64,000 bases of DNA from an uncultured virus (IMG/VR IMGVR_UViG_3300023109_000016) (lineage: Duplodnaviria; Heunggongvirae; Uroviricota; Caudoviricetes), in the IMG/VR virus record IMGVR_UViG_3300023109_000016; one strand, written 5' to 3'. The translations under genes and the position numbers were made by a program. Shown in pieces: positions 37,218 through 63,541 of the stretch; position 1 is the first letter of the stretch, and every line of letters begins with the position of its first letter. A model generated the notes under the pieces. The model saw nothing but the letters and a program-made list of their open reading frames with translations. It did not search any database and was not told the origin of the DNA.

Positions 37218-38390
37218 TTAAATAATATCTCTTTTTTTGAGATAATAGACAGTAAAGTAATTTGAAGCAATATTGGCTAAAGTTCCTCCCATAAAGCCCA
37301 CGATTAAAGGATACCACATAGCCATTTTAACCTCCTTCCTCGTTAAGGTTGCGTCTTCAAAGTCAATATCAATGTCAATAGATTCAGCCGCCATTTCCCT
37401 TTGGAAATCTGCAGGGAATTCGCCGAATAAGTCTAAAATGAAATCATATCCGTATATCATACCCATGTAGTAATGTTCCATTTCTTCATTGTTTGCTTGA
37501 TAGGCTCTTTCGCCTAATTCTTCAGCCTTTGGACTTAAAATCCATGAGATTTCTTCTAAGACTAATTCTCCAGAAGTTATTTTGATTCCGTTAAGGAAAT
37601 CTTGATAGGATTTCAATTGACCTCTAAGGAAATTTTCATTAAACATATCAATTTGAGGCTTTCTTAAATCTTTGGTGATAATTTCAACACCTGCTTGAAT
37701 GGTTTTAACTTTGTGTTGCGGAAGATTTGTTTTGATTTCTTCTGCCGACCAAGATTCAGCATTCATAGTTGCTGAAAGTTTCTTAGCCCAATCTACGCCT
37801 GAAGTTCCACCCCATAAGAGCCAAGCAATTGTTCCTGCAGTAGGACCTCCATCAGGTTTCTTTTTAGAAGGATTGTAATTCTTCCTGTGTCTGTTAAAAG
37901 CCGACATTCTTCTTACATCATGTCTTGAAACAGAACCACTTGAAATCTTTTTAGCCCTTGTAACTCCAGAATCAATACCTTGTTTTTTGGCTTCAGCAGG
38001 GCTTAAGCCTCCTCTGCCCCATTTTTCTCTTAGTTTCAAACCTCTTTTCGCATTATTTACGGCGGCTTGAGGCGGTTTATAGGCTTCAAAGACTTCAGCC
38101 TCAAAACCTCTTGATATCCATTTATCAGCAGAGCCTAATCCTAAACTTTCAGGCAATCCCTGTTCTTCAAGGATTTTTAACCACTCTGCAGATTTGTTTT
38201 TTCTCATCCAAAAAAACTGTTCTCTGGATTTAAAACTTCTGTCAAGATATTCTTGAGGATTAATGTTCATCCACTTAGATTTAGAGCCTACTCCTAATCC
38301 TCTAACGCCGTATTTAGCGACCCATTCCTTCCAAATATCAGGATGCTCTCTCATCAAGTAGTAAAATTGCTTCCTTGATTTAAAAGGCAT
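37218..38390 (-). CDS. Modular AE-linker protein with C-terminal TM
   Basis: Duplicated FKSR.QF module, GFEAEVFEA, basic YKPPQAAVNNAKRGL domain, MNAESWSAEE, MAAES, TM. Confidence 0.8.
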   Translation of the reverse strand: MPFKSRKQFYYLMREHPDIWKEWVAKYGVRGLGVGSKSKWMNINPQEYLDRSFKSREQFFWMRKNKSAEWLKILEEQGLPESLGLGSADKWISRGFEAEVFEAYKPPQAAVNNAKRGLKLREKWGRGGLSPAEAKKQGIDSGVTRAKKISSGSVSRHDVRRMSAFNRHRKNYNPSKKKPDGGPTAGTIAWLLWGGTSGVDWAKKLSATMNAESWSAEEIKTNLPQHKVKTIQAGVEIITKDLRKPQIDMFNENFLRGQLKSYQDFLNGIKITSGELVLEEISWILSPKAEELGERAYQANNEEMEHYYMGMIYGYDFILDLFGEFPADFQREMAAESIDIDIDFEDATLTRKEVKMAMWYPLIVGFMGGTLANIASNYFTVYYLKKRDII

Positions 38391-38427
38391 GAGTTTAATT
38401 TATTGAAACGACTATTTAATATTTATG

Positions 38428-38913
38428 TTATTCCTTAATCATCTGTTCAGTTATTTTTTGAATTACTATCTCAGTAATATAAGGTCCGTCTTCATAATCC
38501 CATTTATTGTAAAGGGAAAATCTTTCCTTTTCCCAATTAATTCTGATTCCTACATAAACCCAGAAATCAAATTCAGAACCTCCTACATCAATTTGTAATC
38601 CTTTTGGAAATTCTCTTCTTACATCATTCCAATCTTTACAAGCCTGTAAAGTTCTAATATATCCTAAATTTACTTCATATTCAGCATCATCTGGTTCTGG
38701 GTCCGCATCTCTAATATCGTTTATATGGCCTATTGAATCTCTCAAATAAGGTCTAATACAAGTTATATAACTCCACAGACCTTTTTTAAAATAAGGCCCT
38801 TGAGTATCTACAGAGGAATATTCTATATTCGTCCTTATTCTAAAATAAACATTTTCTAAATTTAAAGAAGGTTTGTTTTCGTGCCAATTCATAAATGCTG
38901 GTTTTTTTGTCAT
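38428..38913 (-). CDS. Hypothetical protein with N-terminal FMNW tag
   Basis: Begins MTKKPAFMNWHENKP. Confidence 0.8.
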   Translation of the reverse strand: MTKKPAFMNWHENKPSLNLENVYFRIRTNIEYSSVDTQGPYFKKGLWSYITCIRPYLRDSIGHINDIRDADPEPDDAEYEVNLGYIRTLQACKDWNDVRREFPKGLQIDVGGSEFDFWVYVGIRINWEKERFSLYNKWDYEDGPYITEIVIQKITEQMIKE

Positions 38914-38972
38914 CGTATCACCTTTTTATAACTGTAAGAGATTCTAATTTAAAAATGAAGGAAATGAAGACA

Positions 38973-39551
38973 TTATGCAACCTCCTTATAAATAGATTCT
39001 GTAGGGTAAATAAATAGGCCTTCTCCTCTCACGCCTTCGTTTGAATCTCCAAATATTAGTTTAAATATTTCATTTTCAATATCTATTTTAATATTAAAAT
39101 TTGAGTAAAGTTCCCATTCCCAAAAATTAAAATTTATTTGTGTTTTATAATTTTTTGAAAAATCATCAAAAGAGTTCAAATTAGGCAATAATTCTAATAA
39201 CTCTTGATAGTTATCTACGGTTTCTTGCCTATCTGCATATCCTGCGTGTTCAATCCATTCTTCATTTCCTCCAATATCTTCCATACAAAGTTCAATATGT
39301 CCCATTATTTGTATTAATAATGTCTTAAATCCATCAAATACTGCTTGAGACAAATTCGGAATGATAAATATTCCATCCGAGTCTTTTTTAGAACCTGTTA
39401 AATAAATGAATTTTCTTGAATCTTTGTTATAAATTCTGGAAGTAAACCCAATATCTGCATGGTCTTGAATATAGTGATTAACAAGATACTCAGAAGTATT
39501 AGGCTTGATGTTTTGATGCCAATTTATAAATGCAGGAGGATTATCCATCAA
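38973..39551 (-). CDS. Hypothetical protein with N-terminal FINW tag
   Basis: Begins (M)MDNPPAFINWHQNIKP. Confidence 0.8.
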   Translation of the reverse strand: MMDNPPAFINWHQNIKPNTSEYLVNHYIQDHADIGFTSRIYNKDSRKFIYLTGSKKDSDGIFIIPNLSQAVFDGFKTLLIQIMGHIELCMEDIGGNEEWIEHAGYADRQETVDNYQELLELLPNLNSFDDFSKNYKTQINFNFWEWELYSNFNIKIDIENEIFKLIFGDSNEGVRGEGLFIYPTESIYKEVA

Positions 39552-39807: not shown

Positions 39808-39832
39808 AACCTTTTTAAAGAGGTTTTGCTAT

Positions 39833-40339: not shown

Positions 40340-40343
40340 GAAA

Positions 40344-43300
40344 TCACTTCCTGTATTTCTTAATCAACTCTCTGATTTGGTTCGGTGCAAGCAAAGCAGT
40401 TCCTACGCCAATGCCCAAAAGACCCCAAATCATTTTCTTAGACTTAGGTTTATTGTAAGTTTCCATCTTGCTTCTGAATCCTTCTGCTTGTAGCCTATCT
40501 AATTCACCTGAATCGTTTGCATATTCAAGATAGTCTGCCAAGTTATCGGCTTGGTCTGTGGCAACACTTAGTTTTGACTTCCACCATTCAGGATATTTCT
40601 TAGCAGGGTCTGCAAGTTCTTCTAACTTATCGGTAGCCTTACTTAATTCGTGAACATCAGAAGTTACCATGTAAGATTCGGGTCTTGATTCTGCTTCCCA
40701 AGACGACATATCAAGTTGCAATTCAAAAGAGGCAATGGCCTCTGAAACATCAAATTCATATCCACAACCCTTGGTTCTAAAATAAAATCCTTCACAAACA
40801 TAATAACCTTCCAAATAATCTAAATCAACAATTTCATCACAAACCGAATTACATTTAGGGCAATGAATTATCAAAACTTCATCATCTTTTATTTCAAAGT
40901 TTTCAGCACCATACCTGTCCTCATGGCTTTCTTCTTCATGCTCTGCCCAATCCATGAATTCAACATCTCCGTGTGATTCAACTTCTTCCTGAAGCCAATT
41001 TTCAAAAGAAACATTTTTTCCATGAGTCATCATTTCTTGGTCGCCCCATTCTTGAAGCGTATCTGCCTCGTAATCAGCCATCATCTTGGAAACTTCATCT
41101 TTATCAAAAGCATCTGGATTCTCAGAAACTAAAACATCTCCATTAAAGTCTGTCGTTGCGGAATCTTTATCAGAGCCAGAGAAAACATTAGCATAGAAAT
41201 TCTCAAGGCTGGCTGAATAAAAGTTTTCTGATTCATACCTTTCAGCATCTCTGGAAGCAATTGTTTCAGCCCTAAATCCGCTTACATCCTCTGCCCATCC
41301 TCTTGGTAGAGGAGTGGAGGCATAGGTTTCAGCCTCATAACCTTCACCACCTTGAACGAGAGAAGAGTCTTCTGATTGAGGGTCATATGTATCCAAAAGG
41401 AACTCCATGTAATCTACATCTTGGTCGTGGAAGCCAAAAATTACAGATAAGCCATCATCTGTCTTTTCAGCAGAAACCGTTTCTGGAATTTCAAGCATCA
41501 TCTTGTAATAAATATCTACAGGAACTGTAGCCGTGTTGCCCGATAAACTATCCATCTTGAATTCTTCTGCTTCCATCGTTACGGTAGGTTTTTCCTTATC
41601 AGCCCACCATCTGGGGTGGAAATCATCACCCATCCAGCAACATGATTCGCAATCCTCATTTGCATCTCTATCAACTCTAATCTCTGCCTTGGATACTCCA
41701 CAACAAGGAGCAATAAGCATAGTTTCATCTCTTGTCGTGATGTAAGTGCCTTTCTGGTCTGGACCCATTCTGTTCCAAATTTCAGGAGGGATATGCTCAT
41801 CAAACATGATTCTGTCTGGTTCGGCAGTATATACCTTTTGGTAAGTTTCTGCGTCAAAAGATTCTTCTGCATCCTCCTCTTCATAAGAAGTCAACGGAAT
41901 TTCAGGAACTGCAGTTCCGATAAACTCAACATTATCGTCTTTACTAATAACAGTTGCAGTTTTTCCGACCTCACCATCTTCATAAACAAACTGAGTGCTT
42001 AAGAAAGCAGGTTCACCCCCCTCGCCCTCTTCAATCATGCCATCTACAAATTCATTTAATTCATTATAAGTCATAGCAAGACCTTCATCTAAAACATCAT
42101 CTATATCAAGAAGGTCTCCCTCATCTTCCTCTTCATCTTCATCTTCATCGTATTCATCTTCTATTTCATTAAATGAACCTTTAAAGTAAATTAATTTTTT
42201 ATCAAAATCTATTTCAAATGTATACCCATCATCATCATCATACATATCAATTGAAACCAAACCTACTTCAGGATTTAATGGTGAAAAATCCATTTTCAAT
42301 CCCTTAAAAAAGAATTCATCTTCATCCCTCTCTTTTTCATCCCATGCTCTGTAATAATCAAAAAAGTCTAATAGGTTGGTTTTTTCACCGTTTTGATTAG
42401 GTGTAAGAATGAATGCAAAAATAGGCTCATCCTCTTCTTCATCAGTAATCATTTTTAATTCATGTGATAAATCATACAAATCCCCAGAGTCAGTTTCTAA
42501 AAGTCCCACTCTAAAATTATTTTCTTTGATGAACTTCAAAGCATCTGTATCTTTAGAAGACATATAATCTTCAAATACTTCATGAACAATTTCTCTAAAA
42601 TATTCATTTTCCGCATCTTTCAAATCTTTGGGGCAATAATAAAAATCATCATCTGCATTTTCACTCCATTTTTCTTCTCCTGTAAAATAACCCTTTAAAC
42701 CTTCAATGATAACTATGCATTGTTCTAAATCCATGAGTCCTTTTTTAAATTCTAAATTGAATTGTCTTAGAAGTCCCTCTTTATTTGATTTCGCATCATC
42801 ATTTGTAGTAGTATAAATTTTCAAGGTTCCTGAAATATCATCATAATGGATATCTTCAATACTATGAAGTTCTTCAGCAGTAGGTTCTAATTTATAAGAA
42901 AAATGGGGAAGGCTATTATCATTTATTTCCTGTATCATATTTAATAATCTTCTTTTGATTTTAGTAGAATTAACTTTTTCATAACCTTTTAATTCAGCCA
43001 TAAACTCTTCAAGGTTAAATTCTTCCACCGCTTCTGCTTCTACCGTTTCGGATTCTACCGTTTCGGATTCAAAAGATTCTGAAGACATCATCTTAGCCTT
43101 GATATCTCTGCAAACCTTATACCTCATATCTGGCTTTCCATCCTTAGTCATATACTTAGGGTCTAAGTCTGCATAAGGGTCGTCAGCCTTTAATTGAGTC
43201 TTGGTTCTTGCTTCTTCAGGAGTAATATCTTTATCTTCTTCAAGAGTTCTTGGAGTGTGGGGCTTTCCTGTCATCGTTTTAACTTCGCCCTTTGGTTCTT

Positions 43301-43523
43301 CATAAGCAATCTCTGCTCCAAAAACCTCTACATCATCAGAATCCATTTGAGATAAAAGTTGTTCGGCATCGGCTTTGGATGCAAAAGTTGAAATCTTGTG
43401 ATTATCATAATAGCCTTTAACTGCCCACTTAATCCCTCTCTTTGTTTCTACAGGATTGACTTCTGAAACAGAGAATTCCACTTTTTGTTTAAGTGGTCTG
43501 CAATACCCTGTATAAACTACCAT
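40344..43523 (-). CDS. Large acidic modular polyprotein-like protein (AE-linker family), C-terminal TM
   Basis: 1059 aa with more than 12 hydrophobic-x-AE/AD/SE linkers separating modules (KDGKPDMRYK, CC..C..CC, CPKC..C..C, PEWWKSKL); TM WGLLGIGVGTALL. Confidence 0.85.
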   Translation of the reverse strand: MVVYTGYCRPLKQKVEFSVSEVNPVETKRGIKWAVKGYYDNHKISTFASKADAEQLLSQMDSDDVEVFGAEIAYEEPKGEVKTMTGKPHTPRTLEEDKDITPEEARTKTQLKADDPYADLDPKYMTKDGKPDMRYKVCRDIKAKMMSSESFESETVESETVEAEAVEEFNLEEFMAELKGYEKVNSTKIKRRLLNMIQEINDNSLPHFSYKLEPTAEELHSIEDIHYDDISGTLKIYTTTNDDAKSNKEGLLRQFNLEFKKGLMDLEQCIVIIEGLKGYFTGEEKWSENADDDFYYCPKDLKDAENEYFREIVHEVFEDYMSSKDTDALKFIKENNFRVGLLETDSGDLYDLSHELKMITDEEEDEPIFAFILTPNQNGEKTNLLDFFDYYRAWDEKERDEDEFFFKGLKMDFSPLNPEVGLVSIDMYDDDDGYTFEIDFDKKLIYFKGSFNEIEDEYDEDEDEEEDEGDLLDIDDVLDEGLAMTYNELNEFVDGMIEEGEGGEPAFLSTQFVYEDGEVGKTATVISKDDNVEFIGTAVPEIPLTSYEEEDAEESFDAETYQKVYTAEPDRIMFDEHIPPEIWNRMGPDQKGTYITTRDETMLIAPCCGVSKAEIRVDRDANEDCESCCWMGDDFHPRWWADKEKPTVTMEAEEFKMDSLSGNTATVPVDIYYKMMLEIPETVSAEKTDDGLSVIFGFHDQDVDYMEFLLDTYDPQSEDSSLVQGGEGYEAETYASTPLPRGWAEDVSGFRAETIASRDAERYESENFYSASLENFYANVFSGSDKDSATTDFNGDVLVSENPDAFDKDEVSKMMADYEADTLQEWGDQEMMTHGKNVSFENWLQEEVESHGDVEFMDWAEHEEESHEDRYGAENFEIKDDEVLIIHCPKCNSVCDEIVDLDYLEGYYVCEGFYFRTKGCGYEFDVSEAIASFELQLDMSSWEAESRPESYMVTSDVHELSKATDKLEELADPAKKYPEWWKSKLSVATDQADNLADYLEYANDSGELDRLQAEGFRSKMETYNKPKSKKMIWGLLGIGVGTALLAPNQIRELIKKYRK

Positions 43524-43567: not shown

Positions 43568-44119
43568 TTAATATCTGTAAGATAGCATATTCTGTCCAAT
43601 CGCAGAACCGTATTCTCCAAAGACGCTAATTCCACTTCCGATAGGGCTTGGAGTAAAAGCATCTGGATTAGTTAATAAATTAAGTGCGGCATCGTTTCTT
43701 GCTTCTTGTTCAGCCTTTTTACCTTCCTCAGCAGACTTAACTTCTTCTTCAGCATCCTTAATGATGTTTTCATAATATTCTGCTTCTGCATGGGCAACTG
43801 TTCCTCTGTTCAGTTTTCCAAATCCGTATCCAAACAAGAGGGCTCCTGTAAATACTCCAAGACTTTGCCACACCCCTTCAAAAATTTGAGGATTATCGCC
43901 CTTGCCCCTAACCCAATCAAACCCAAGAGAGAGCAAAATTCCTGAGCCTATTGAAAGAGGGACAGAAACTGAGGTATCTTGTAGTTCCTTTTTCCATCCG
44001 GGAACTGGAGGGATAAATCCCATGATAAGGTCTGAAGACTCTCCATCAAAATCTGAATCCGAGTCATTTTCTGCCTCGTATTCTTCTAATTTCTTTCTTA
44101 AGCCCTTGAAATCAACCAT
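43568..44119 (-). CDS. 2-TM membrane protein with AE linkers
   Basis: YEAE, AEAE, DAEE, SAEE; two TMs; AGGTGA SD. Confidence 0.75.
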   Translation of the reverse strand: MVDFKGLRKKLEEYEAENDSDSDFDGESSDLIMGFIPPVPGWKKELQDTSVSVPLSIGSGILLSLGFDWVRGKGDNPQIFEGVWQSLGVFTGALLFGYGFGKLNRGTVAHAEAEYYENIIKDAEEEVKSAEEGKKAEQEARNDAALNLLTNPDAFTPSPIGSGISVFGEYGSAIGQNMLSYRY

Positions 44120-48145: not shown

Positions 48146-49396
48146 TTACTGTTCATTTGGCTCAGAAGCCTCTACCTGAACATTTTGACTGAAAAGGTTC
48201 TTTTTGAAAGTATCTACATTTTCAGGAGTAATCGTAATGTTTTGTTCCAACAATTTTAAAGCAATCAAGCAATCAACACCATCATAAAGCGTGTATTTAA
48301 AGAAGGCTTGAAGTTTTCCAAGTTCAGTAACTTGAATGTAGGTTTCTTGCCCTGTTGCTGATTGATTGTCATTATAACAAGTTAATCTTAAATCCCAAGT
48401 TTGAGTCGGTAGGATGTAAACAGGAGTTTGAACTCTGTCACTACAGGCATTGAATTGCTCTGTTAAAGGATAAGGGGCTACATTTCCGGGGATGCCATCT
48501 CTTGCAACGCCATCAGGGTCTTTAAAATATCCTGTAGTATTAACATAGAATTGCATATAGGCTCTGGGACCTCCTAAGGAATTTCTAATCTTACTCCCTC
48601 TATAGTCTTCTAAATCCCATGTCCCTCCTCCTTGAGCATTTCCGGGGAAAAAGGATGTGGGGGTGCATCCAAAATTCTCAACAACAATAAATTGTGATTC
48701 TTTAGTCATAGGCTTATTCTTTAATTTATTTCCCTTTTCAATAAATACTGAAAAGGATTCTCCTAATTGGACTACATTAGTATCTTGTGAAGTAAAGATA
48801 GGATTAATTTCAGTAACTGTATAAGCGGCTGAAAGATTATAAGGAGGGCCGGGTGAAATATATATGATATTACTTACTGAAAATCCAGAACCTCCTGAAA
48901 CGATGCTCGGTGTGCCACTCACCTCTCCTGTGGCAGTAACGGAAGAAACATTAAATGTAGCATCACCATTCCCACCCGCTACTGAATAATTTCCTGTTGA
49001 AAAATCAAAACCATATCCCAATGAAACTAATCCACCATTAGGTGGTGTAAGAGGAGGGGCTGGAATAATATAAGTTCCATTGCCATCTCCTCCTGCAATA
49101 CTGCCTGTATCACCAATAGCATATCCACTTCCGGGATTTACAACTTCTACAGTAGTGATGTCTCCAGAACCGCCTACGCTTGTGATATTTAAAGTTAATA
49201 CTGCGTTTCCACTACCTGTAGTTACTGTGGTAGTGGTAATTCCTGTAGAATATCCTAAACCAATACCAGTTATATTAACTTGATTTACGCTTGAAGTTAA
49301 ACCTGCAAGTGGGACAATAGTTTTAATTGACCCTGTTTGGGTTGAACCCTTTCCTCTTGCAAGGTCCCAATTCCATACTTGACTTCTCATTGCCAT
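48146..49396 (-). CDS. Capsid-protein paralogue with large Gly-rich insertion (putative spike or turret)
   Basis: MAMRSQVW.W start and FKYTLYDG.D.LIA.KLL end; insert of about 170 aa with GSGY-type repeats. Confidence 0.7.
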   Translation of the reverse strand: MAMRSQVWNWDLARGKGSTQTGSIKTIVPLAGLTSSVNQVNITGIGLGYSTGITTTTVTTGSGNAVLTLNITSVGGSGDITTVEVVNPGSGYAIGDTGSIAGGDGNGTYIIPAPPLTPPNGGLVSLGYGFDFSTGNYSVAGGNGDATFNVSSVTATGEVSGTPSIVSGGSGFSVSNIIYISPGPPYNLSAAYTVTEINPIFTSQDTNVVQLGESFSVFIEKGNKLKNKPMTKESQFIVVENFGCTPTSFFPGNAQGGGTWDLEDYRGSKIRNSLGGPRAYMQFYVNTTGYFKDPDGVARDGIPGNVAPYPLTEQFNACSDRVQTPVYILPTQTWDLRLTCYNDNQSATGQETYIQVTELGKLQAFFKYTLYDGVDCLIALKLLEQNITITPENVDTFKKNLFSQNVQVEASEPNEQ

Positions 49397-49397
49397 A

Positions 49398-50033: not shown

Positions 50034-50082
50034 AGGTTTAAAAGTGTTGCACGACTATTTAATACTTATTAAAATTTTAAAT

Positions 50083-50158
50083 AAAAAAAAACCCCTCCTG
50101 AACCCACCCGAAGATGAGAACAAAAGGGGGAAACCCTGCTCCCTAAGGAGCAAGGGTT
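50083..50158 (-). terminator. Double hairpin plus U-tract after putative major capsid genes
   Basis: AACCCUUGCUCC-UUAG-GGAGCAGGGUU, then CCCC...cUUCGg...GGGG-U9; G-U pairs fit the minus strand. Confidence 0.85.
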
Positions 50159-50189
50159 ATTGGAATCTTAACTAACCTCTTTAAGAGCC

Positions 50190-50795: not shown

Positions 50796-51442
50796 TAAGC
50801 AACACCTCCGTTTGTAGCAGGAGCAGACGCTTGCTCAATCAGAGTTCTCTTATACCAATCAACATTGTTTGGGTTGACGGTAACACCGAGTTCCAATAGT
50901 TTGTTTGCAATTAGTGCATCTGGACCATCGTAAAGGGTATACTTGACGAAACAAGCAACACCAGTAGTTCCACCACCTGACGAACTTGAGCCCTCTACAT
51001 CCGTTTGACAGGAGTAAAGGACACCCCATGTTTGTCCCGGAAGGACATAAACATCAGGATATAGGTTAAAGGAAGATAGAACATAGTTCGTTCCAGTTGG
51101 AGACCCAGCGGAATCAGCACCTACAGGGTAGGGGCTTGCGAGACCGGGGATACCATCTTGCTTTGTTACATCGGGATTTTGGAAGTAATCCGTTGTGTTA
51201 ATTCTAACTTGGACCGCACTACCATTCTGAGGGGAAGAAGAAATATCTTCAATGACCACGAACTGAGTAGCGGTGGTCTCGGCTGGCTTAGTAATGTTGT
51301 TACCAAATCCGCCGATGAAGATATCATATTCCCTACCAGAAGTTAGCCCAACAGGAGCGCAGTTTGCCGCTCTCCTAATTGTGCTGTTATTTCCAACAGT
51401 AGCGAGGTTTGCCCATTCATATACTTGACTTCTCATTGCCAT
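50795..51442 (-). CDS. Putative major capsid protein 1
   Basis: MAMRSQVYEW...GNNITKPAETTATQFVVIEDI...FVKYTLYDGPDALIANKLLE; leader with GAGGTGA SD and TTTAAGTAG promoter. Confidence 0.65.
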   Translation of the reverse strand: MAMRSQVYEWANLATVGNNSTIRRAANCAPVGLTSGREYDIFIGGFGNNITKPAETTATQFVVIEDISSSPQNGSAVQVRINTTDYFQNPDVTKQDGIPGLASPYPVGADSAGSPTGTNYVLSSFNLYPDVYVLPGQTWGVLYSCQTDVEGSSSSGGGTTGVACFVKYTLYDGPDALIANKLLELGVTVNPNNVDWYKRTLIEQASAPATNGGVA

Positions 51443-52676: not shown

Positions 52677-52930
52677 CTCATATTCCTACAAGCACCAACG
52701 ACACAGACACCACTAACAAGTAGACCGAGACCTACGAGTTGTTGTGCGCCTACCGTCATTCCACCAACGCTCATAGAGAACGCTGGAAGGAAGCCGAGAA
52801 CAGGTTGTGCTTCCGTTAGCATAAGGTGAAGACCACCCACTACACTAAGCAGACCTGCTACACATTGTCCTTTGTTGCCTGAAAACCAATAACACATTTT
52901 ATCATACATTTTTTTCACCTTATTGTCCAA
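52673..52930 (-). CDS. Small 2-TM membrane protein
   Basis: Two TMs; layout similar to the downstream gene. Confidence 0.75.
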   Translation of the reverse strand: MDNKVKKMYDKMCYWFSGNKGQCVAGLLSVVGGLHLMLTEAQPVLGFLPAFSMSVGGMTVGAQQLVGLGLLVSGVCVVGACRNMR

Positions 52931-53675
52931 TTACACTCCCTAATCCTTCTGCACCCGCAACCATGTTGCCGAGTGTAGCCTTTCTTGGGGAGAACATCAT
53001 TTCTTCAGCAGAGCCATACCATTGGTCAACTCCACCCATTGGAGAAGAGGGAGCCATGATATCATTTCTTTCAGCAACTGCCCAAGGATTCGCAACTCTG
53101 GAAGCACCAGAAGCCCACGAAGGAGCCGAATCCATCATTTTTGCAGGGTTGTAATTTTCGGGTCTGGATTCTTCAAGAGTTGGAACGCCTTCTTCAGCAT
53201 TTTTCCAATTCCAAACATATCCTTGATTGGCATCACCATCATCTTCAGCCGCTTGACCGACAGTTCTGCCAGTATATTCCTGTCCAATGACTCTGCCGTC
53301 ATCAGCATCAGGAAGACCCATCATATCTTCAGCACCGAGGCCAAAGGAAGGAAGTCCAATCTCTGAAAGAAGCCTTCCAAGACCAATACCACCGACAACA
53401 ACGCCAGTTACTTGAGTAAGACTTCTAAGAGCAGGTTCTGCGACTCTGCCAGATAGACCGAATCCATAAAGACCTGCACCTGCAAGGAAAATAGCACCAG
53501 AGGATGCAAACCTTCCAACAGTTCCACTAAAACTTAATACGGAAGATAAGAATCCTCCAACCATTGCACCAGCAATAATACCACCCACACCGCCAATGAA
53601 TTGAGCATCCATTGCAGTATCAAGAGCATCCATGCCTGTATCATAAATATCTTCCATCAGTTCCATTTGTTTCAC
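52920..53675 (-). CDS. 3-TM Gly-rich membrane protein with AE-linked C-terminal modules
   Basis: Three Gly-rich TMs, then LGAED.., QAAED, KNAEE, GSAEE, AGAEG; likely ATG at 53666. Confidence 0.8.
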   Translation of the reverse strand: MKQMELMEDIYDTGMDALDTAMDAQFIGGVGGIIAGAMVGGFLSSVLSFSGTVGRFASSGAIFLAGAGLYGFGLSGRVAEPALRSLTQVTGVVVGGIGLGRLLSEIGLPSFGLGAEDMMGLPDADDGRVIGQEYTGRTVGQAAEDDGDANQGYVWNWKNAEEGVPTLEESRPENYNPAKMMDSAPSWASGASRVANPWAVAERNDIMAPSSPMGGVDQWYGSAEEMMFSPRKATLGNMVAGAEGLGSVIGQ

Positions 53676-55606: not shown

Positions 55607-56383
55607 TCACCTTACCCTTTTCCTCATAAGGTAAGGAACAAGAACTGATAATCCTGCAATTCCACCAAGCATGGCAATAGGAATTTCTTTCTTTTCTTTT
55701 GGAGTTAAAGATTCTAATTTCCCTTCTGCTTGCTTTAAAGTAGCAATTACTTTATCAATTCCATCAGGGTTTTCAGGAATATAATCTACAATATTTTGAA
55801 TTTTCGCTCTTTCAACTAAATATCTGGTATCTTCCAATGAAGTATTGTTGAAATTATCCTTACTCCAAGCAGAGGCTCCAATAGAAATTTGCCAAGGTTT
55901 ATAATCATGTCCCTGAGCCTTGAATTTTGCCAAAATTCTTGAAAGGCTTCTTCTTCCGATTTCGTCATCAAATAACCATTCTTCATAATCAGATAAATCC
56001 ATTGTAGAAATAGCCTCCATTTTTTGAATCTCAACCATATCTTCTGCTTCCATTACCTTTTTGCTTTGTTCCGCAGTAAAACAAGTGAAGCATTCGCTAT
56101 TTTTAACCATTGAACCTTTATCTTTCTTGGAATGAATATAGGAATCACACTTTGGGCATTGGTCTGGCAACAGAGAATCTGCTTGTTGCAATAATTTTTC
56201 TTGTTCTGCGTGAAATTCCTTCAAAGCAGTTAAAAATTCAGATTCTGCATCTCTTTTTTCAGCAATAAGTTCCGATGTTTCTTGAGCCATATATAATGAT
56301 TGTTCAACTTCTTCAGATTCTAATTCTTCAGAAGAATACATCAACTCTTCTAAAGATTTAGAATGATTGCTCTCTTCAGACAT
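55607..56383 (-). CDS. AE-linker protein with CxxC..CxxC module and C-terminal TM
   Basis: RDAES, FHAE, CPKC..CFTC, FTAE, MEAE; TM. Confidence 0.8.
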   Translation of the reverse strand: MSEESNHSKSLEELMYSSEELESEEVEQSLYMAQETSELIAEKRDAESEFLTALKEFHAEQEKLLQQADSLLPDQCPKCDSYIHSKKDKGSMVKNSECFTCFTAEQSKKVMEAEDMVEIQKMEAISTMDLSDYEEWLFDDEIGRRSLSRILAKFKAQGHDYKPWQISIGASAWSKDNFNNTSLEDTRYLVERAKIQNIVDYIPENPDGIDKVIATLKQAEGKLESLTPKEKKEIPIAMLGGIAGLSVLVPYLMRKRVR

Positions 56384-56983: not shown

Positions 56984-58006
56984 TTAACCTCTTCTCTTAG
57001 AGAACCATGCACCAGATAGTGCCGCAACACCCACAACAATTGCAGATGCAGTCCAACCACCAAGTCTAAAGTTTCTAACGACAGGCAAGTCTTGGAAGTA
57101 ATCTACAATATCTTCAGAATCATAAGGGTTGTAATCCATAGGGTCGCCATAAGGAGAGAACTCTTCTGGGTTGTAATCATAAGCATCTTCTTCAGCCCTC
57201 ATTTGACCGAAGTTGTTGCCTTCTCCAACATCTCCAAAGGCTGATTCTTCTTCAGCGGCTTGACCGACCACAAGACCCTCATAATCTTGACCAATTATAT
57301 GACCATCATCAGGGGCAGGAAGTCCCATCAGGTCTTCAGCACCGTGAATATCTTCAGCACCTTCTACAACAGTAGGGTTGATTCTGGAAAGGTTTTCTGC
57401 ATCATATTCTTCAGCATCCATTTCCATATATTCTTCTTCCATTTCTTCAGCCCTCATTTGACCGAAGTTGTTGCCTTCTCCAACATCTCCAAAGTCAAGT
57501 TCTTCTTCTGCATCAGCAACAGTTGATTCTTCAACAGATTCTTCATTATCTAAGTCTTCAATAAAAGCCTTAATCTTAGTCTTTTCATCAGAATTGTCTG
57601 GGATGATGAAATTAACAGTAAATCTTCCACCATCAGCAGACTTAGGGCCTAAAGTAAGGTTCTTATATCTTTGAGCGTCTTGACCAACTCTAAAAACTCT
57701 GGTCTTTACATCGGTTATTTCTGGTTGTCCTATTCTACCTTGATTTCCCCTAATCATAACTACATCTTGTTCATTATCAAACACGATTTGAGTGGGGGTG
57801 AAAAGGTGCGTATCTGTCTTACCAATTTCGTAATACATTTGACACCTTGATAGGTTTTCATCTTCAACCATCTTCGGCGTAGCCTTGCTTGCGGGAACAA
57901 CCCAAGCCCTGCCATAAAAATTGGTTTCTTCGTTGAAAGTATCGGAGTCAAAACCCCAGAAATCATTACTTCCAATATATACTGCATCTACTTCTTCTCT
58001 TGCCAT
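56984..58006 (-). CDS. AE-linker modular protein with C-terminal TM
   Basis: About 9 AE/SE linkers, duplicated FGDVGEGNNFGQMRAEE, TM WTASAIVVGVAALSGAWF. Confidence 0.85.
   Translation of the reverse strand: MAREEVDAVYIGSNDFWGFDSDTFNEETNFYGRAWVVPASKATPKMVEDENLSRCQMYYEIGKTDTHLFTPTQIVFDNEQDVVMIRGNQGRIGQPEITDVKTRVFRVGQDAQRYKNLTLGPKSADGGRFTVNFIIPDNSDEKTKIKAFIEDLDNEESVEESTVADAEEELDFGDVGEGNNFGQMRAEEMEEEYMEMDAEEYDAENLSRINPTVVEGAEDIHGAEDLMGLPAPDDGHIIGQDYEGLVVGQAAEEESAFGDVGEGNNFGQMRAEEDAYDYNPEEFSPYGDPMDYNPYDSEDIVDYFQDLPVVRNFRLGGWTASAIVVGVAALSGAWFSKRRG
57188..57494. repeat. Exact 52-bp direct repeat inside a CDS
   Basis: 57188-57239 is identical to 57443-57494. Confidence 0.9.
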
Positions 58007-58007
58007 T

Positions 58008-58724
58008 TCAAACTCTCCTTAACATTTTTTCAGTTCCTACATATGGTCTAAACCTTACTGTGAAATCATTTACTACATCAACCATGCCTTCGCTCCTCCA
58101 TTGAGCAAGACTTAATGTTTTAGAACTATCTGTATAGGAATCATTAGCATCTGGGTCTAATGTTCCTGAATAAGTCTTACCATTAGGAGAACTAAGTCCA
58201 ATTCTTGAACCGTCTCCTGCAGGAGTCATAAAAGGTTGTGTTAAATCAAGACCATAAGTTTGAGTAGGTCTGCAACAATCATCCTTTGATGTAGGAATAG
58301 AAGGCTTTAATTGAGCAATTGGGGAAGGAATCAATTCTTGACCCGGAGCCATTGCGTTAAAAGTCGTAAAATCCTCAGCAGAAAGATTATAATTATATGG
58401 ATTTTCAACACTAATCATAACATCTGAAACTCCTCCTCCGTAAGGACTATCGTTTACATAGGTGGTAGTTTTGTCAAATGCAAGGTGTCCTGCATAAGAG
58501 GAAGAAGGGTCGTATTGAACTGGAACTAAGTCTACAGTCATACCCGTTCTTTGTCTGTCCACTTCTTCTAATTGAGAAGGGCTAAATTTTGCTTTAATTC
58601 TATCTACAATAGTTTGAAAACCATTGGAAGATTCAGGTTCGGCTTCAAAACCTAATGAACCTCTAAAATGATAGGCCACTAAAGCCAATGCACCAGTTAA
58701 AAGAACAGTTCTTCCACTTACCAT
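58008..58724 (-). CDS. N-terminally anchored AE-linker protein
   Basis: TM, then GFEAE and LSAED; TTTAAGTATC promoter. Confidence 0.8.
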   Translation of the reverse strand: MVSGRTVLLTGALALVAYHFRGSLGFEAEPESSNGFQTIVDRIKAKFSPSQLEEVDRQRTGMTVDLVPVQYDPSSSYAGHLAFDKTTTYVNDSPYGGGVSDVMISVENPYNYNLSAEDFTTFNAMAPGQELIPSPIAQLKPSIPTSKDDCCRPTQTYGLDLTQPFMTPAGDGSRIGLSSPNGKTYSGTLDPDANDSYTDSSKTLSLAQWRSEGMVDVVNDFTVRFRPYVGTEKMLRRV

Positions 58725-58763
58725 ACTATCCCTCTTAACTTACCGATACTTAAAGATTACGAT

Positions 58764-58967: not shown

Positions 58968-58971
58968 TTTA

Positions 58972-60396
58972 TTACCTCCTACCGTAAAGGAATCCTGCAA
59001 TTAAAGCCATTGCTAAAATACTCTTTGAAGAGGTAGGGGTTAAAATGCTTTCAGCCGCATTTCTGTGAACGGTGTATCCTTTATTAGATTTCCTATGGCT
59101 TCCCCTTCCAAAAAATGCAGGAGGCCAAAACATCATGCCTTCAGTCTTTTTAGACTTTTTAGCATAATTTTCTATTGCGGCTCTTTTACCTTCAGTAATA
59201 GAATCAAAATCTCCAATAGGAATTCCTAACTCATTCTCAATAACCCATCTTCTACCTCCTTTATCCATAGGCTTAATTCCCGTAACTTCATAGAAAGTTT
59301 CTGCTTCAGCATCAAACCTTGAAAAGTCAAGGTGAGGATTGGCACATCTTGCACAAAGATACATTCCATTATACATCTTCATTTCATCAGAGTATCCGGG
59401 TTTTTCGCATTCAACACATTTAATTGTAAACCAATCTGCTTCAAAATCTTCTGCATCTCTCCTATTTCCGCAATTTGCTTCAAAGGATTCTTCAGCCCTC
59501 TTTTCATCTGTTTGGACAGAAAGTAATTTATAACATTGACACATAGGTTTTTTGGCACTACATTGATTTCCTAAATACATACATTCACAAGGAACTGATT
59601 TTGTAGCACCGCAACAACAAGAGCCCTTTTTCAAAGTTCTCTTATATTCTGCGTCAAAAAATTCTGCACTAAATTCTTCTGCCATATAATTAATGTAGTT
59701 ATTTCCGCCTGTTAAAGCATTCGCTTCATTAATAATGTAAAATCCTATTGCATCTCCCAAATCAGCATATAATTTATCTTTTTGAGGAGAGTATAGGGGT
59801 TTTCTTTCTCTATTATGTCCATCATTTAAAATGCCTTTTTCTAAAGCCGCTTCTAATCTATACATAGCATCCCTAACTCTTCTTCCGTCATAAGACCTAT
59901 TGGTTAAATCGTAAATTGGTTGAATATAATTTTCATATCTGTTAGAATCAATCCCTGTTACTTCATACCCTCCATCTTGTTCTCCCATTCCATAACAAGG
60001 TTCACAATCAACCATTCCAGAACCATTACATTCATCACATTCATCCCCCTCCCAATCTTCGCCATCTCCATTACAAATCCAACACTCTTGCTCTCCTTCT
60101 CCTAAACAAGAACCGCATTCTTCTTCCACAGGCTCTACTGAAACTAAATTCCCGTTTCCATTGTTATAATAATCGTAAACAAGAAAACTAAATGAATTTA
60201 CAAGAACTCCAAAAACGGTAGGATTCAATTCAGGGTGTCCTATAAGGTGATTAATCTCTTCTGTATAGGCTCCATTCTCATACCCAGAATTTCTATCTCC
60301 TATTTCAGTCCTTCTAAAAGGTTGTCCTTTTTGTGATGCAATTTTAATGCATTCTTTACAACCGGGCTTATAAGAAGCAATAGGTTTAAATTTCAT
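58972..60396 (-). CDS. Cys-rich modular AE-linker protein with DnaJ-type zinc finger and C-terminal TM
   Basis: Four CxxCxGxG repeats; YMAEEFSAEFFDAE, RAEESFEA, RDAEDFEAD, FDAEAE, NAAES; ORF 58972..60459, likely ATG 60396. Confidence 0.85.
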   Translation of the reverse strand: MKFKPIASYKPGCKECIKIASQKGQPFRRTEIGDRNSGYENGAYTEEINHLIGHPELNPTVFGVLVNSFSFLVYDYYNNGNGNLVSVEPVEEECGSCLGEGEQECWICNGDGEDWEGDECDECNGSGMVDCEPCYGMGEQDGGYEVTGIDSNRYENYIQPIYDLTNRSYDGRRVRDAMYRLEAALEKGILNDGHNRERKPLYSPQKDKLYADLGDAIGFYIINEANALTGGNNYINYMAEEFSAEFFDAEYKRTLKKGSCCCGATKSVPCECMYLGNQCSAKKPMCQCYKLLSVQTDEKRAEESFEANCGNRRDAEDFEADWFTIKCVECEKPGYSDEMKMYNGMYLCARCANPHLDFSRFDAEAETFYEVTGIKPMDKGGRRWVIENELGIPIGDFDSITEGKRAAIENYAKKSKKTEGMMFWPPAFFGRGSHRKSNKGYTVHRNAAESILTPTSSKSILAMALIAGFLYGRR

Positions 60397-60409
60397 TCCT
60401 TTCAAAGAA

Positions 60410-60859
60410 TCACTTCCTTGTTTGCTTACCAACCCAAATCGCCCCTGCAAGAACTGCAATAACTGAAAGATTCTTTAACCATAGCCTTTCTGGTTTTTCA
60501 CCCATCGGGAACGATATCTCATCAGACCAAGCCTCATCCCAAGAGCCGTAGGGAGCATTATCAAAATCAGCATCAAAGAATTCAGCATTCCTTGTTTCAT
60601 ATTTTCCATCCATAAATTCAGTCCTAAGTTGAGGATATCTTTGGAAAACTTTTCTCCTTACTTCTAAAGCATCTTTTTTATTGTTAGGCCATGTTGAATA
60701 AACTAAAGCCAGCATAGCGTGTCTTTCATCTCCAATAGGATAAGCCTTTCTTTCTGGGAAAACATACTCTGATTTTGCCTTTTTAGAAAGTGTAGGGTGT
60801 CTGTCTTTTACTTCAGCATCAAAAGATTCTGCATCTTTGCATCCGCAAGTTGAACACAT
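60410..60859 (-). CDS. AE-linker protein with C-terminal TM
   Basis: MCSTCGCKDAESFDAE, FPERKAYPIGDERHA domain, NAEFFDAD, TM. Confidence 0.8.
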   Translation of the reverse strand: MCSTCGCKDAESFDAEVKDRHPTLSKKAKSEYVFPERKAYPIGDERHAMLALVYSTWPNNKKDALEVRRKVFQRYPQLRTEFMDGKYETRNAEFFDADFDNAPYGSWDEAWSDEISFPMGEKPERLWLKNLSVIAVLAGAIWVGKQTRK

Positions 60860-60865
60860 TTATCT

Positions 60866-61702
60866 TCACATCCTTTTTGCTTTTGTATTAGAATCGGTGT
60901 GAACGGTTTGATAATCAAGAGGTCTGTAAGGGTCGGCAGGATTGTAATCATTACTCCAAACCGAGTCGGCAGGATATCTGTATCTTGGAAGGAAATCGGC
61001 TACAGGGTCGTATACTTCAGGATAGCCTTCAGCAGATTTCTTATCACCACATCCTCCACCACCAGAGCATCCACATCCGCATCCTCCTTCTGCCTTGAAT
61101 TCAACATTCTTAATTCTGGAAACTGCGAAAACACCTACTGCAACGGCAATAAGAGTTTTCCAAGGGAATCTTGAACCTGCTCCTTCTGCAGAATATCTGC
61201 CTCTTTCCATACCCATTGCAACTTGATTGCCTAATGCTCTTTCCCAAGACGACATATAGCCATCATTGTTTCTATCAGCCTTAACAGAGTCTAAGTTAGG
61301 ATGGTCGGGATAGATTTGACCTGTGTATGGTTTTCCATCCCTGTCAATATCAGTAAGTTTTCTTTGAGCCTCAAAGGATTCTGCATCATAGGAATAAAAT
61401 TTATCAAAATAATCATCCCTTTCCTTTTTTGTTAAAAAATATTCATCATCTATTGCACTATTAAGATAGTCAAACAGTTCTTGAAAACTCTTTTCAGTTT
61501 TTGAACCGCTTTCAATCACATACACATCAGCCTCAAAAGATTCTGCTCCTAATTTCTTAATGCCAAATCTAATCTGGCATCCTTCACAAATATTAGATTG
61601 AGGTGCAACTTCATCTGCACCACAGGAAACACAAACATCATCCATTTCAAAGAAAGGAGCCTCATAAGATTCTGCATCTCTGCAACCGCAAGTTCCACAC
61701 AT
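60866..61702 (-). CDS. AE-linker modular membrane protein
   Basis: MCGTCGCRDAESYEA, LGAESFEAD, YDAESFEA, DRNNDG loop, YSAE, TM, FKAE, GCGCGC, KSAE. Confidence 0.8.
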   Translation of the reverse strand: MCGTCGCRDAESYEAPFFEMDDVCVSCGADEVAPQSNICEGCQIRFGIKKLGAESFEADVYVIESGSKTEKSFQELFDYLNSAIDDEYFLTKKERDDYFDKFYSYDAESFEAQRKLTDIDRDGKPYTGQIYPDHPNLDSVKADRNNDGYMSSWERALGNQVAMGMERGRYSAEGAGSRFPWKTLIAVAVGVFAVSRIKNVEFKAEGGCGCGCSGGGGCGDKKSAEGYPEVYDPVADFLPRYRYPADSVWSNDYNPADPYRPLDYQTVHTDSNTKAKRM

Positions 61703-61740
61703 AGTTTTATAAATGAAGTTCCGCTATTTAAAGATTACTC

Positions 61741-62130
61741 TTAAACATCTTGCCCAAGTTTTTGTGCATCAATTTTATTAATTGTTCCTGAAGCCCATAA
61801 CTGACAAACCCAATCCCCTCTTACTGCGGCTTCATTCCTTGAACAATAAGGCTCTCCTGCGGCTTCCATCCTTCCTTTAACAAGATGTCTACAATTACCG
61901 CAGAACTTAGCATTAGCACCTGTTCCATCAGGAGTAATTTTCAATCCAGCCCTTTCTAAAGCCGCAACCCATCTGGGAGCATTTTCATAAAAATAATTAG
62001 GATATTTAGTTCCAACAGGCAAAGACTTAATAATGTCTCTATTTCCTACAACATCGGGAACATCGTCCTTTCTTGGACAAGTCCTCGCATTATGCCCCAC
62101 TCTTTTACAGATTCCACATTTCCTTGCCAT
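61741..62130 (-). CDS. Zinc-knuckle protein with a HiPIP-like Cys module
   Basis: CGICKRVGHNARTCP; CGNC...YC...V..DWVC.LW. Confidence 0.7.
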   Translation of the reverse strand: MARKCGICKRVGHNARTCPRKDDVPDVVGNRDIIKSLPVGTKYPNYFYENAPRWVAALERAGLKITPDGTGANAKFCGNCRHLVKGRMEAAGEPYCSRNEAAVRGDWVCQLWASGTINKIDAQKLGQDV

Positions 62131-62173
62131 ATGGATACACCGAACCTCTTATATCCTCTCTATTCGTGAGGGT

Positions 62174-63541
62174 TTATTGTTGGTGGTGTCCACAGTTAGC
62201 ACAGAAAGTTTCTTCAGCACCAAAGCCAAATGCAGTCCTTCTGGTTAGTCCAGCCATATCAGTTCTTCTTGAAGAGTAATCGCTCTTAGGGTCCTTCATT
62301 TCTACTACTGTATCCATTTCTCCTGTGATAATCTTTTTAGGCTTACCCATTAAACCTCTCAAGATGCTAACCTTTGGCCTTTCCATAATTCTTCTTGCCA
62401 TTCCTGACCTTCTGTCTCTTCTTTCAAGCCTTCTGGTTTCCCAAGGTTGACCAGCATTTACTCCGAATCCGAATTCACCCTCATCTGGGACAAGCATTCT
62501 GCTTGCTCCTTCTCTACCAGCATTAGCAATTCCAATTTTTCTGGTAAGTTCAGTATTTGGGACAGGCTTTGCGGCAGTTCCGTAGCCTCTTTCCATAAAC
62601 CAAGCCCTTCCTGTGTTGACACCTTTTCTGGTAAGTTTGCCTTTGGAATCTCTATTACCAACATGGTCGCCCTTGTGATAAAGTTTACCGCCCTTTGCAG
62701 AGTAGCCGGGTTTCTTAGCGGCATCTGCAAACTTAGTAGCGGCGTTGAAAGCATGAATTTGTTCAGCATTCCAATCTTCAGCACCCATTTGTCCGAAGTC
62801 ATTACCTTCGCCAATGGCTCCAAGCATTTCTTCTTCTGCCTCTCTAATTTTCTTGCCTCTCTTGGACTTTTCCCTCATTTCCCAACTTTCTTCTTTGTTT
62901 ACTCCGAATCCAACATCTCCTTGAGCAGGAACAAGCATTCTCTTGCTACCTCTTCCAGCGTTTGCAATTCCAAGTTCTCTTGTAAGTTCCGTATCTGGGA
63001 CAGGTTTCTTAGCAGTTCCATAGCCTCTTTCCATGAACCAACCCCTTCCGCCACCTACTCCTTTTCTGGTAAGTGAGCCTCCTCTACCTCTTCTTCCAAC
63101 AAGGTCGCCTTTGTAATATAATTTGCCGTTCTTAGCAGAGTATCCCGGTCTCTTAGCGGCTTGAGTAAAGGAAAGTGGAGCCTCAAACTCGGCTTCTCTA
63201 ATAGACTTTCCCTTACTTGACTTATCTCTCATTTCCCAACTTTCTTCTTTGTTTACTCCGAATCCAACATCACCTTGAGCAGGGACAAGCATTCTCTTAC
63301 CCTTCTTTCCAGCGTTTGCAATTCCAAGTTTTCTGGTAAGTTCCGTATCTGGGACAGGATTCTTAGCAGTTCCATATCCTCTTTCCATGAACCAACCTCT
63401 TCCGGTATTTACACCTTTCGTTGTTACTGAATTTCCTCTACCCCTCTTTCCAACAAGGTCGCCTTTATAATAAAGTTTGTCGCCCTTAGAGGAATATCCG
63501 GGTTTTTTTGCCGCTTCTGTAAAAGACTTTCTCTTTGACAT
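62174..63541 (-). CDS. Highly basic protein with three repeats of about 118 aa separated by AE linkers
   Basis: ORF 62174..63658; ATG 63541 fits the TTTAAGTATC promoter; repeats F..AAK.PGYS.K..KLY.KGD...; 354-bp period (62874/63228). Confidence 0.85.
   Translation of the reverse strand: MSKRKSFTEAAKKPGYSSKGDKLYYKGDLVGKRGRGNSVTTKGVNTGRGWFMERGYGTAKNPVPDTELTRKLGIANAGKKGKRMLVPAQGDVGFGVNKEESWEMRDKSSKGKSIREAEFEAPLSFTQAAKRPGYSAKNGKLYYKGDLVGRRGRGGSLTRKGVGGGRGWFMERGYGTAKKPVPDTELTRELGIANAGRGSKRMLVPAQGDVGFGVNKEESWEMREKSKRGKKIREAEEEMLGAIGEGNDFGQMGAEDWNAEQIHAFNAATKFADAAKKPGYSAKGGKLYHKGDHVGNRDSKGKLTRKGVNTGRAWFMERGYGTAAKPVPNTELTRKIGIANAGREGASRMLVPDEGEFGFGVNAGQPWETRRLERRDRRSGMARRIMERPKVSILRGLMGKPKKIITGEMDTVVEMKDPKSDYSSRRTDMAGLTRRTAFGFGAEETFCANCGHHQQ

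Follow-up and report, generated by a model that had tools for sequence, protein, structure and literature searches.

Results

The linker and its excess in the window

Many proteins of a large, uncultured marine virus of archaea (IMG/VR record IMGVR_UViG_3300023109_000016) are punctuated by a short peptide linker, and here we describe this linker, the modules that lie between its copies and a candidate system for cutting it. The window, meaning the whole stretch of DNA that was analysed, is one strand of 64 kb, gene-dense, with a G+C content of 32-43%. In a profile scan its genes included PolD DP2, TFB, MCM, a PriS-like protein, an AAA ATPase and a glycosyltransferase. The proteins with the linker are listed in Table 1 together with the other features discussed below. 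We defined the strict linker as [FYWM]x[AS]E. It occurs 56 times in 87 open reading frames (ORFs) of the window, and 1000 shuffles gave a mean of 25.8 and a maximum of 44. The dipeptide AE is the most enriched of all 400 in the window, with 138-139 copies versus about 85-86 expected (91 ORFs of at least 50 amino acids in one count), and [FYW]xAE occurs 34 times in 91 such ORFs, where 9.1 are expected. A preliminary description, made from the sequence alone, had reported the motif as repeated in a list of proteins, and it is present at the places named there.

The preliminary description had also raised acidic composition as a possible cause. Controls with whole proteins, local blocks and the reversed motif rule out a composition artefact. 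Thirteen of the listed proteins hold 42 strict sites and would hold 8.1 by chance; shuffling within blocks of 20 or 40 residues gave 9.0 and 8.7, never more than 17, and the reversed motif occurs 8 times. These 13 proteins were picked for having the motif, and the fair tests are the whole-window total and the relatives. The list holds up as a whole, but 23963, 43568 and 60410 have one strict site each and 52920 none. In 40344, for which a dozen or more linkers had been claimed, there are 19 by the looser pattern used in that claim. The remaining 74 ORFs of the window show no excess (14 versus 17.6 expected). Eleven named enzymes, among them PriS, TFB, MCM and DP2, contain 4 sites versus 5.7 expected, which agrees with the earlier remark that replication enzymes are without linker clusters. 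Eight shell-like proteins of the window contain none (1.1 expected), and 38 shell proteins of five genomes contain 4 versus 7.3, a weak deficit. Cellular control loci likewise show no excess (8 versus 19.0 in 56 ORFs).

The linker follows one promoter class. The 60 ORFs behind a TTAA[AG]TA box contain 51 strict sites versus 17.8 expected, the 13 behind a T[TA]TATA box (the replication class) contain 2 versus 4.6, and 13 unassigned ORFs contain 3 versus 2.9; the assignment is rough, and TFB fell into the TTAA[AG]TA class by inheritance. The TTAA[AG]TA class, to which the jelly-roll genes belong, can be called late only by conjecture.

Table 1 Features of the window (ORFs are named in the text by their first coordinate)
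Feature	Position	Strand	Remarks
58-amino-acid peptide	2452..2628	+	Tandem linker (two sites), then hydrophobic segment
Candidate protease, JAB-like	16618..17439	-	JAB-like domain (E31, H83, H85, S100, D103), linker, hydrophobic anchor, linker, tail; in 5/5 genomes
Weak member	23963..24967	+	N-terminal anchor, one strict site; its modules sit between linkers in relatives
N-anchored protein	24957..25586	+	Anchor, linker, DUF5872 basic module (33-180), linker, short tail
PolD large subunit DP2	27204..30644	+	Context gene without linker excess
390-amino-acid protein	37218..38390	-	Basic module at residues 100-212; anchor at C-terminus, 4 strict sites
1059-amino-acid linker-punctuated protein	40344..43523	-	Hydrophobic anchor at C-terminus, 12 strict sites; relatives carry modules 825-880 and 946-1014 in other proteins
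Weak member	43568..44119	-	Two hydrophobic segments, one strict site near N-terminus
Four paralogous jelly-roll-class genes	48146..51442	-	No strict linker; 50190..50795 modelled
Weak member	52920..53675	-	Three N-terminal hydrophobic segments; four relaxed sites, no strict site; short peptide module in common with 56984
Protein with acidic N-part	55607..56383	-	4 strict sites in the acidic part, then conserved domain; anchor at C-terminus with basic tail
Repeat protein	56984..58006	-	N-domain conserved; 5 strict sites with short peptide repeats between them; anchor at C-terminus
N-anchored protein	58008..58724	-	Site after N-terminal anchor; kept in 5/5 genomes
Cys-rich modular protein	58972..60396	-	Triple tandem site 59647-59688, C-terminal anchor; probable start 60396
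Cys-leader protein	60410..60859	-	Leader MCxxCGC, tandem linker, module, C-terminal anchor; one strict site
Cys-leader protein	60866..61702	-	Modules, internal anchor with one site on each side
Basic-repeat protein	62174..63541	-	Three basic repeats split by linkers; no anchor from probable start

The linker in relatives and its residue pattern

The syntenic relatives of the window are four IMG/VR contigs (G001-G004) of 123-166 kb. Strict sites exceed local shuffles about twofold in each of them (128 versus 64, 99 versus 54, 105 versus 50 and 118 versus 63). Metagenome loci around the JAB-like gene behave in the same way. That gene is encoded in 539 metagenome stretches, of which 80 were kept and one, L066, was removed as near-identical to the window; the resulting 79 loci gave 460 nonredundant ORFs with 285 strict sites versus 132.5, and 24 of these ORFs, up to 1562 amino acids long, are strongly enriched. 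The standard double linker in these loci is phi-x-A-E-[ST]-F-[EDGN]-A-E.

The residue preferences were taken from 255 sites in 66 motif-rich ORFs, a set chosen at p<0.05 among 907 ORFs of five genomes and including some chance members. The first position is F in 99, Y in 68, M in 65 and W in 23, and the residue before Glu is Ala in 191 and Ser in 64. The P3 residue is often G, E or D. Pro is absent from P3 (0 versus 12.1) and rare after the Glu (3 versus 12.0), where Lys and Arg are depleted too (6 versus 29.3). Tandem repeats of five residues are frequent, with 29 spacings of exactly 5. This looks like a peptide that could lie as an extended strand in the subsites of a protease. Of 67 occurrences of [AS]E-x-[FYW]-x-A, 28 continue with E and 10 with D. 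A cut after Ala instead of Glu is possible; the starts of modules favour Glu. Signal peptidase I requires a small residue three before its cut. We rejected it as the cutting enzyme, for neither the aromatic residue of the linker nor the sites far from membranes suit it.

Modules end at the linker and are shuffled

Local alignments between linker-rich proteins tend to stop at the linker. Of 110 alignment ends that are internal in both proteins, 40 lie within 3 residues of a site (9.1 expected) and 59 within 6 (15.6 expected), all from related genomes and so not independent; in a separate first test 51 of 152 ends lay within 8 residues, versus 22.4. The earlier placing of linkers between modules and beside membrane anchors is supported. 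Cutting the proteins in silico at the linker yields 419 fragments of at least 30 amino acids, with a median of 76, including 48 basic, 116 acidic and 50 Cys-rich ones. They form 334 clusters, and the 53 with several members occur in different proteins and orders. Window modules 37218:100-212, 24957:33-180, 40344:946-1014, 58972:272-323 and 60866:109-173 recur whole in other proteins and orders, and modules are added and removed at the linker, much as the preliminary description had envisaged. Unrelated domains are thus combined in one chain and shuffled between elements, as in polyvalent proteins. Pfam domains found between linkers in the relatives are Pol X, GluRS-like, GNAT, WGR, DUF5872 and DUF5754. 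We also noted a GluRS-like catalytic domain on an N-terminal anchor with linkers (L035:4752-6569, G003) and a Pol X domain bounded by linkers (L019:15231-17939, G004).

The basic module of 37218 gives the sharpest boundary. In 8 of 10 distinct contexts it starts directly after the linker Glu, once it follows an extra half-linker and once it begins at Met. It matches 80 phage records. In S-CBS4 it is a small gene between the portal and capsid genes, and in phage DC31 (L039:1329-2123) it is fused ahead of an XkdF/S78 protease domain and has Lys, not Glu, just before its start. DC31 may therefore carry the same cargo under the code of another protease.

At the DNA level the long linker is unusually uniform. 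All 115 nonredundant AE[ST]F sites examined use GAA for Glu (87% in the background), Ser is TCC in 52% versus 15% and Thr is ACC in 53% versus 20%, and the DNA versions are lineage-specific. Codons of single sites are near background, with a slight excess of GAA and TTT. Since the codons of the long linker depart from the background, and do so differently in each lineage, the linkers must be copied and made uniform as DNA, probably as the expected outcome of module shuffling by recombination across them. Codons for Ala and Phe vary, and the DNA differs among lineages while the peptide stays constant. We therefore regard selection as acting on the peptide and the similarity of the DNA as the means by which modules are shuffled; a strict DNA repeat or recombinase site as the sole cause was rejected because codons vary.

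Membrane anchors and the putative shell

Terminal hydrophobic segments of 15-20 residues occur in 36 of the 66 motif-rich ORFs and in 168 of 627 others in the five genomes (p 7e-6). Anchoring is enriched among linker proteins and is not general. For the 28 N-terminal anchors, basic residues lie after the anchor in 12 versus 1, and the first site is within 8 residues in 14. Because membrane proteins obey the positive-inside rule and no signal peptides are present, the modules would face the cytoplasm. For the basic-repeat protein, the frame 62174..63658 most likely starts at 63541, 34 nucleotides behind a promoter box at 63575, and is then without a hydrophobic segment. Two proteins of the window and four of G003 begin with the leader MCxxCGC and then a double linker; this Cys-rich leader may resemble a targeting propeptide.

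The conserved multicopy structural gene encodes a jelly roll. A model of 50190..50795, built from a 94-row alignment (predicted local distance difference test score 82.7), is a single jelly roll with a beta-sandwich and C-terminal helices. Its best match in both structure searches is the SPV1 capsid chain (Foldseek E-value 2.5e-3; Z-score 8.4, root mean square deviation 3.5, 138 aligned residues, 9% identity). The next row scored 6.6 and an HHIV-2 chain 5.9; a search of BFVD structures added nothing clear. SPV1 has a single-jelly-roll shell over an inner lipid layer (PMC8459092). Given the modest SPV1 match and the many anchored proteins, an inner membrane can be inferred for this virus as well. 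Four conserved genes at 33536-35841, three of them paralogous (34493, 34931 and 35347), look like further shell or vertex proteins, and 32518..33525 matches tail-fibre profiles.

A candidate protease

Profiles of protease families S77 (PF03420) and C5 (PF00770) found nothing in four records, the latter even at an E-value of 10 and the former with a silent control; nor did profile scans find an S77/S78-fold protease among 81 ORFs of the window. The phiKZ protease gp175 is itself recognisable only by remote searches (PMC9026906). Of the 39 protein families common to all four relatives, 16618 is by our reading the unassigned one with the clearest catalytic-type set of residues. These match the metal-site pattern Glu ... 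HxH ... SxxD of the JAB signature, which consists of E, HxH, S and D (PMC3482391). Among 121 JAB-like sequences, E31 and D103 are each kept in 120 and H83, H85 and S100 in all 121. The gene sits behind the structural-class promoter box. In 118 anchored homologues, which are not independent, a linker precedes the anchor in 88 (5.2 expected) and follows it in 79 (11.0 expected), though the flanks drift, and sites inside the domain are fewer than expected (11 versus 28.2). The layout of 16618 is like that of SPN3US gp245, a protease that cuts off its own C-terminal part at the motif it recognises (PMC5694885, PMC7411985).

Although 16618 is our best candidate, its assignment as the maturation protease is the most uncertain part of our explanation and rather doubtful. 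We know of no virion maturation enzyme with the JAB fold. A complex prediction with the JAB-like domain, a linker peptide and zinc scored 0.25 against a mark of 0.32 and is evidence neither way. The Atlas lead for the family is DUF4329 (0.87); the Prok-JAB profile found none of four records, and no solved JAB structure matched the family by sequence. The linker in 16618 may simply mark the JAB-like protein as cargo. An HExxH protein beside MoxR-type ATPase and vWA genes occurs in G001, G002 and G004, and because it was not found in G003, which is possibly incomplete, it is only a second candidate; a host enzyme may also do the cutting. The block around the HExxH gene (L010:265-9464 in G001; also in G002 and G004) comprises a vWA-like protein, a 930-amino-acid protein, the HExxH protein and the MoxR-type ATPase, and is missing at the syntenic place in G003. 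A restricted HExxH pattern was found in 4 of 907 ORFs of the five genomes, none of them a linker-rich protein. The peptidase at 8816..10183 (phrog_4191) was rejected as the processing enzyme, since it is present only in the window and G003.

The virus group

The host is archaeal. TFB is 51-55% identical to sequences from the phylum of a Thermoplasmata genome, 47% to Hadarchaeota and 39% to Nitrososphaera; by these identities it appears nearer Thermoplasmatota than the two other groups compared, which allows no closer assignment of the host. A capsid profile found none of 401 genomes in that same phylum. DP2 is present in all four relatives, and its best identity in a seed-limited scan was 39%. 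Genes beyond the ends of the window are known from the relatives only. There G001 also encodes DP1, TBP, PCNA, ligase and a HerA-like ATPase with a hydrophobic segment, and two of the four relatives have inverted terminal repeats. Homologues of the HerA-like ATPase and of an ArsA/Get3-type ATPase (L010:18256-19446 in G001, E-value 2e-59) occur in 4/4 relatives; the latter could insert tail-anchored linker proteins. Both PolD subunits, TFB, TBP and PCNA are thus found in one virus-like element (window 27204-30644 and 10883-11824; L012:12645-14030 and 15372-15935; L011:15517-16314), and its own TBP and TFB may read both promoter classes. Patchy accessory genes are the peptidase at 8816-10183, a UvdE endonuclease (25683-26657) and a double GNAT protein (31193-32287).

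The group is abundant: 1743 protein clusters, paralogues included, match the capsid-like gene. The jelly-roll genes and portions of 52920, 56984, 58008, 60866 and 62174 are represented among the contigs of four seawater RNA libraries; such contigs speak for presence in the libraries and not for strand, level or timing, and the uncovered parts are uninformative. In two RNA runs, contigs reverse direction across the final 46 bases of the window (63955-64000), which reflects either a short repeat in low-complexity sequence or an effect of the edge. A literature search, with most subscription papers and all supplements outside its reach, found no description of the virus group or the linker, and the accessible parts of PMC11706807 and 10.1101/2025.08.03.668216 describe neither. 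The group is widespread and apparently undescribed.

A second terminal tag was observed in the window. The pattern [FY][MLI]NW-x-x-x-P-[FWL] stands at the C-terminus of ORFs 691, 1245, 1928, 2631, 3073, 14898, 15548, 18837, 19535, 30701 and 51519, and F[MI]NW near the N-terminus of 17592, 38428, 38973 and 39833. These 15 unrelated soluble ORFs of 146-257 amino acids have no homologues in G001-G004 and are almost without the AE linker; a terminal F[MLI]NW is also found in 36 of the 79 metagenome loci. NP, in part owing to this tag, is the second most enriched dipeptide in the window (83 versus 45) and the first in G001 and G004. The tag is possibly a separate docking or packaging code.

Discussion

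Cleavage of some kind at the linker is probable. As the specific form of it we favour, with reasonable though lesser confidence, cutting of membrane-tethered cargo by a Glu-specific protease in the maturation of a membrane-containing particle. The linker, with F, Y, M or W at P4, often G, E or D at P3, A or S at P2 and then E, often as phi-x-A-E-[ST]-F-x-A-E, would be the protease recognition site, and the cut would probably fall after its Glu. We infer that the proteins of the structural promoter class are strings of small cargo modules attached to a short anchor at either the N- or the C-terminus; the modules are basic, Cys-rich, acidic or, in the relatives, whole enzymes, for example Pol X. 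The anchors would hold the strings on the membrane where the jelly-roll shell assembles, and cutting would then free the modules from the anchor and from one another in maturation, for genome packing or for delivery into the next host. Because all modules start and stop at one common linker, cargo could be exchanged in frame; recombination across linker DNA would add, drop and reorder it.

Several observations weigh against this explanation. Thirty of the 66 motif-rich ORFs, about half, have no terminal anchor. The preliminary description, which named no protease, had overlooked this, as well as the linker on both sides of one anchor and the homogenisation of the long linker as DNA. Sites that flank one hydrophobic segment on both sides (16618, 60866) are awkward for one protease on one face of a sealed membrane and need anchors that do not span it, an open membrane or two enzymes. 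C-terminal anchors show no charge asymmetry (9 versus 10 of 23), the DNA of the long linker is more uniform than the peptide requires, and the capsid fold match is modest, with a Z-score just above the usual noise of the tool, 7-8. As to the enzyme, the S78 (PF04586) and C48 (PF02902) profiles found none of four records, where 4 of 14 and 1 of 14 controls rang, respectively, and remote C48 members could escape. The JAB-like candidate matches DUF4329 alone and weakly (12 of 60 members, below the cut-off; best E-value 0.0023). Its distant homologues keep the metal site and the anchor, mostly without the linker, and the Tox-JAB-2/DUF4329 clade has been proposed to be nucleases, not peptidases (PMC3482391).

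Other explanations account for part of the data. The linker could be a docking tag that is never cut. Its repeated copies would attach to the shell, to a scaffold or to a chaperone, such as the AAA ATPase or the Get3-type one, and the string would thereby be packed or sorted in one piece. Tandem repeats five residues apart would raise avidity more than they would aid cutting, exclusion of Pro suits docking of a strand just as well, and the flanking of anchors on both sides and the silent S78 and C48 searches fit too; in T4, moreover, targeting and cleavage signals overlap (PMC9026906). A docking tag, however, need not stand at both ends of nearly every module or 4-8 residues behind an anchor, and the 37218 module begins exactly after Glu, with homologues that are free-standing or fused to a protease. 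We consider this reading quite unlikely. If the linker is cut, this could also happen in the infected cell instead of the particle, by a viral or host protease that frees modules for repair or for manipulating the host from the membrane of the host. Cutting in the cell is compatible with the enzyme cargo (Pol X, GluRS-like, GNAT, WGR), with unanchored members and with anchors that look like ordinary signal-anchor or tail-anchor segments, and polyvalent proteins are possibly processed after entry (PMC5512222). The excess, however, follows the promoter class of the jelly-roll genes and is absent from the replication class, and some cargo is common to phage head clusters, which makes cutting in the cell improbable.

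The linker might, finally, be mainly a junction in DNA, with cassettes exchanged at a short common sequence and the peptide tolerated as a spacer. The codon bias of the long linker and its lineage-specific versions speak for such a junction, but Ala and Phe codons vary and the peptide stays the same where the DNA differs between lineages. Single sites, moreover, persist beside anchors in orthologues at 53-95% identity, and the site is rare in shell proteins, a weak point given the small counts. As the main role of the linker, a DNA junction is very improbable.

Returning to cleavage in a maturing particle, the separate observations can be joined in one picture. These would be undescribed large, PolD-encoding, membrane-containing archaeal viruses with plug-in cargo, in which a 9-residue linker doubles as the joint for recombination and the place where a membrane-anchored JAB-fold protease cuts; a Get3-type ATPase would load the strings onto open membrane sheets, and the protease would reach both faces as in poxvirus and African swine fever virus (ASFV) assembly. 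That every part of this picture holds is unlikely. If the proposed cleavage is real, membrane-tethered polyprotein maturation in the style of poxviruses and ASFV would extend to an archaeal virus with a single-jelly-roll shell, perhaps with a new class of maturation protease. The virus could swap packaged cargo in frame by recombination at one linker. Hundreds of orphan modules would also gain exact predicted ends, by which they could be expressed, folded and sought in ocean metaproteomes.

The closest functional parallels are the head proteases T4 gp21, phiKZ gp175 and SPN3US gp245. T4 gp21 cuts after L/I-X-E (PMC9026906) and SPN3US gp245 after A-X-E (PMC5694885). Those systems (PMC9026906, PMC5694885, PMC7411985) share with ours a short Glu-ending motif in many unrelated particle proteins, several sites in each, variable internal cargo and a protease with a cleavable C-terminal part. 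They belong to tailed viruses, however, and use a serine protease that removes mostly N-terminal propeptides, whereas the present virus has a jelly-roll shell protein without the site, membrane anchors, Ala or Ser directly before the Glu with an aromatic residue three positions ahead of it, up to dozens of modules in one string and no S78 match. No HK97-fold shell, portal or terminase was matched by Pfam or PHROG profiles in 81 window ORFs or by Pfam in 185 ORFs of the relatives, a scan that did not cover ORFs under 100 amino acids and some ORFs of G002-G004.

Among membrane-containing viruses, the ASFV protease pS273R is a C48-type Cys protease that cuts after Gly-Gly. In ASFV, an icosahedral DNA virus, the precursors pp220 and pp62 are held at the inner membrane and cut as the particle matures (PMC9910796). 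They are two fixed polyproteins with myristoyl anchoring, in contrast to the many variable precursors with integral anchors, the Glu site, the lack of a C48 match and the archaeal machinery described here. Portogloboviridae SPV1 provides the best fold match of the capsid-like protein, and its single-jelly-roll shell over a lipid layer is the likeness from which an inner membrane would be expected here. SPV1 has a circular genome of 20 kb, no polymerase and a Sulfolobales host, and its profile describes no processing (PMC8459092), whereas the window alone is 64 kb, the larger relatives include two with inverted terminal repeats, and the group encodes PolD, TFB, TBP, PCNA and MCM. With the Tox-JAB-2/DUF4329 and JAMM peptidases (PMC3482391), 16618 shares the E, HxH, S and D pattern and weak DUF4329 matches. 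It differs from them as a membrane-anchored core virus gene of putative activity with a longer spacing between HxH and SxxD.

In their architecture the linker proteins are most like polyvalent proteins (Iyer et al. 2017, PMC5512222), mosaics of unrelated domains that were proposed to be packaged and released by proteolysis. Those often carry an HExxH metallopeptidase (MPTase) of their own, in about a third of cases, and the word 'linker' is absent from the main text of that paper; our proteins are joined by a single standard linker and have anchors, and across five genomes none of the linker proteins contains the HExxH pattern. ArdC had no match among the linker proteins scanned, and the absence of HExxH is not decisive, given that only about a third of polyvalent proteins have an MPTase. 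By analogy, then, the linker system would work like the head processing of T4, phiKZ and SPN3US and the membrane-bound polyproteins of ASFV, and it would be built like polyvalent proteins.

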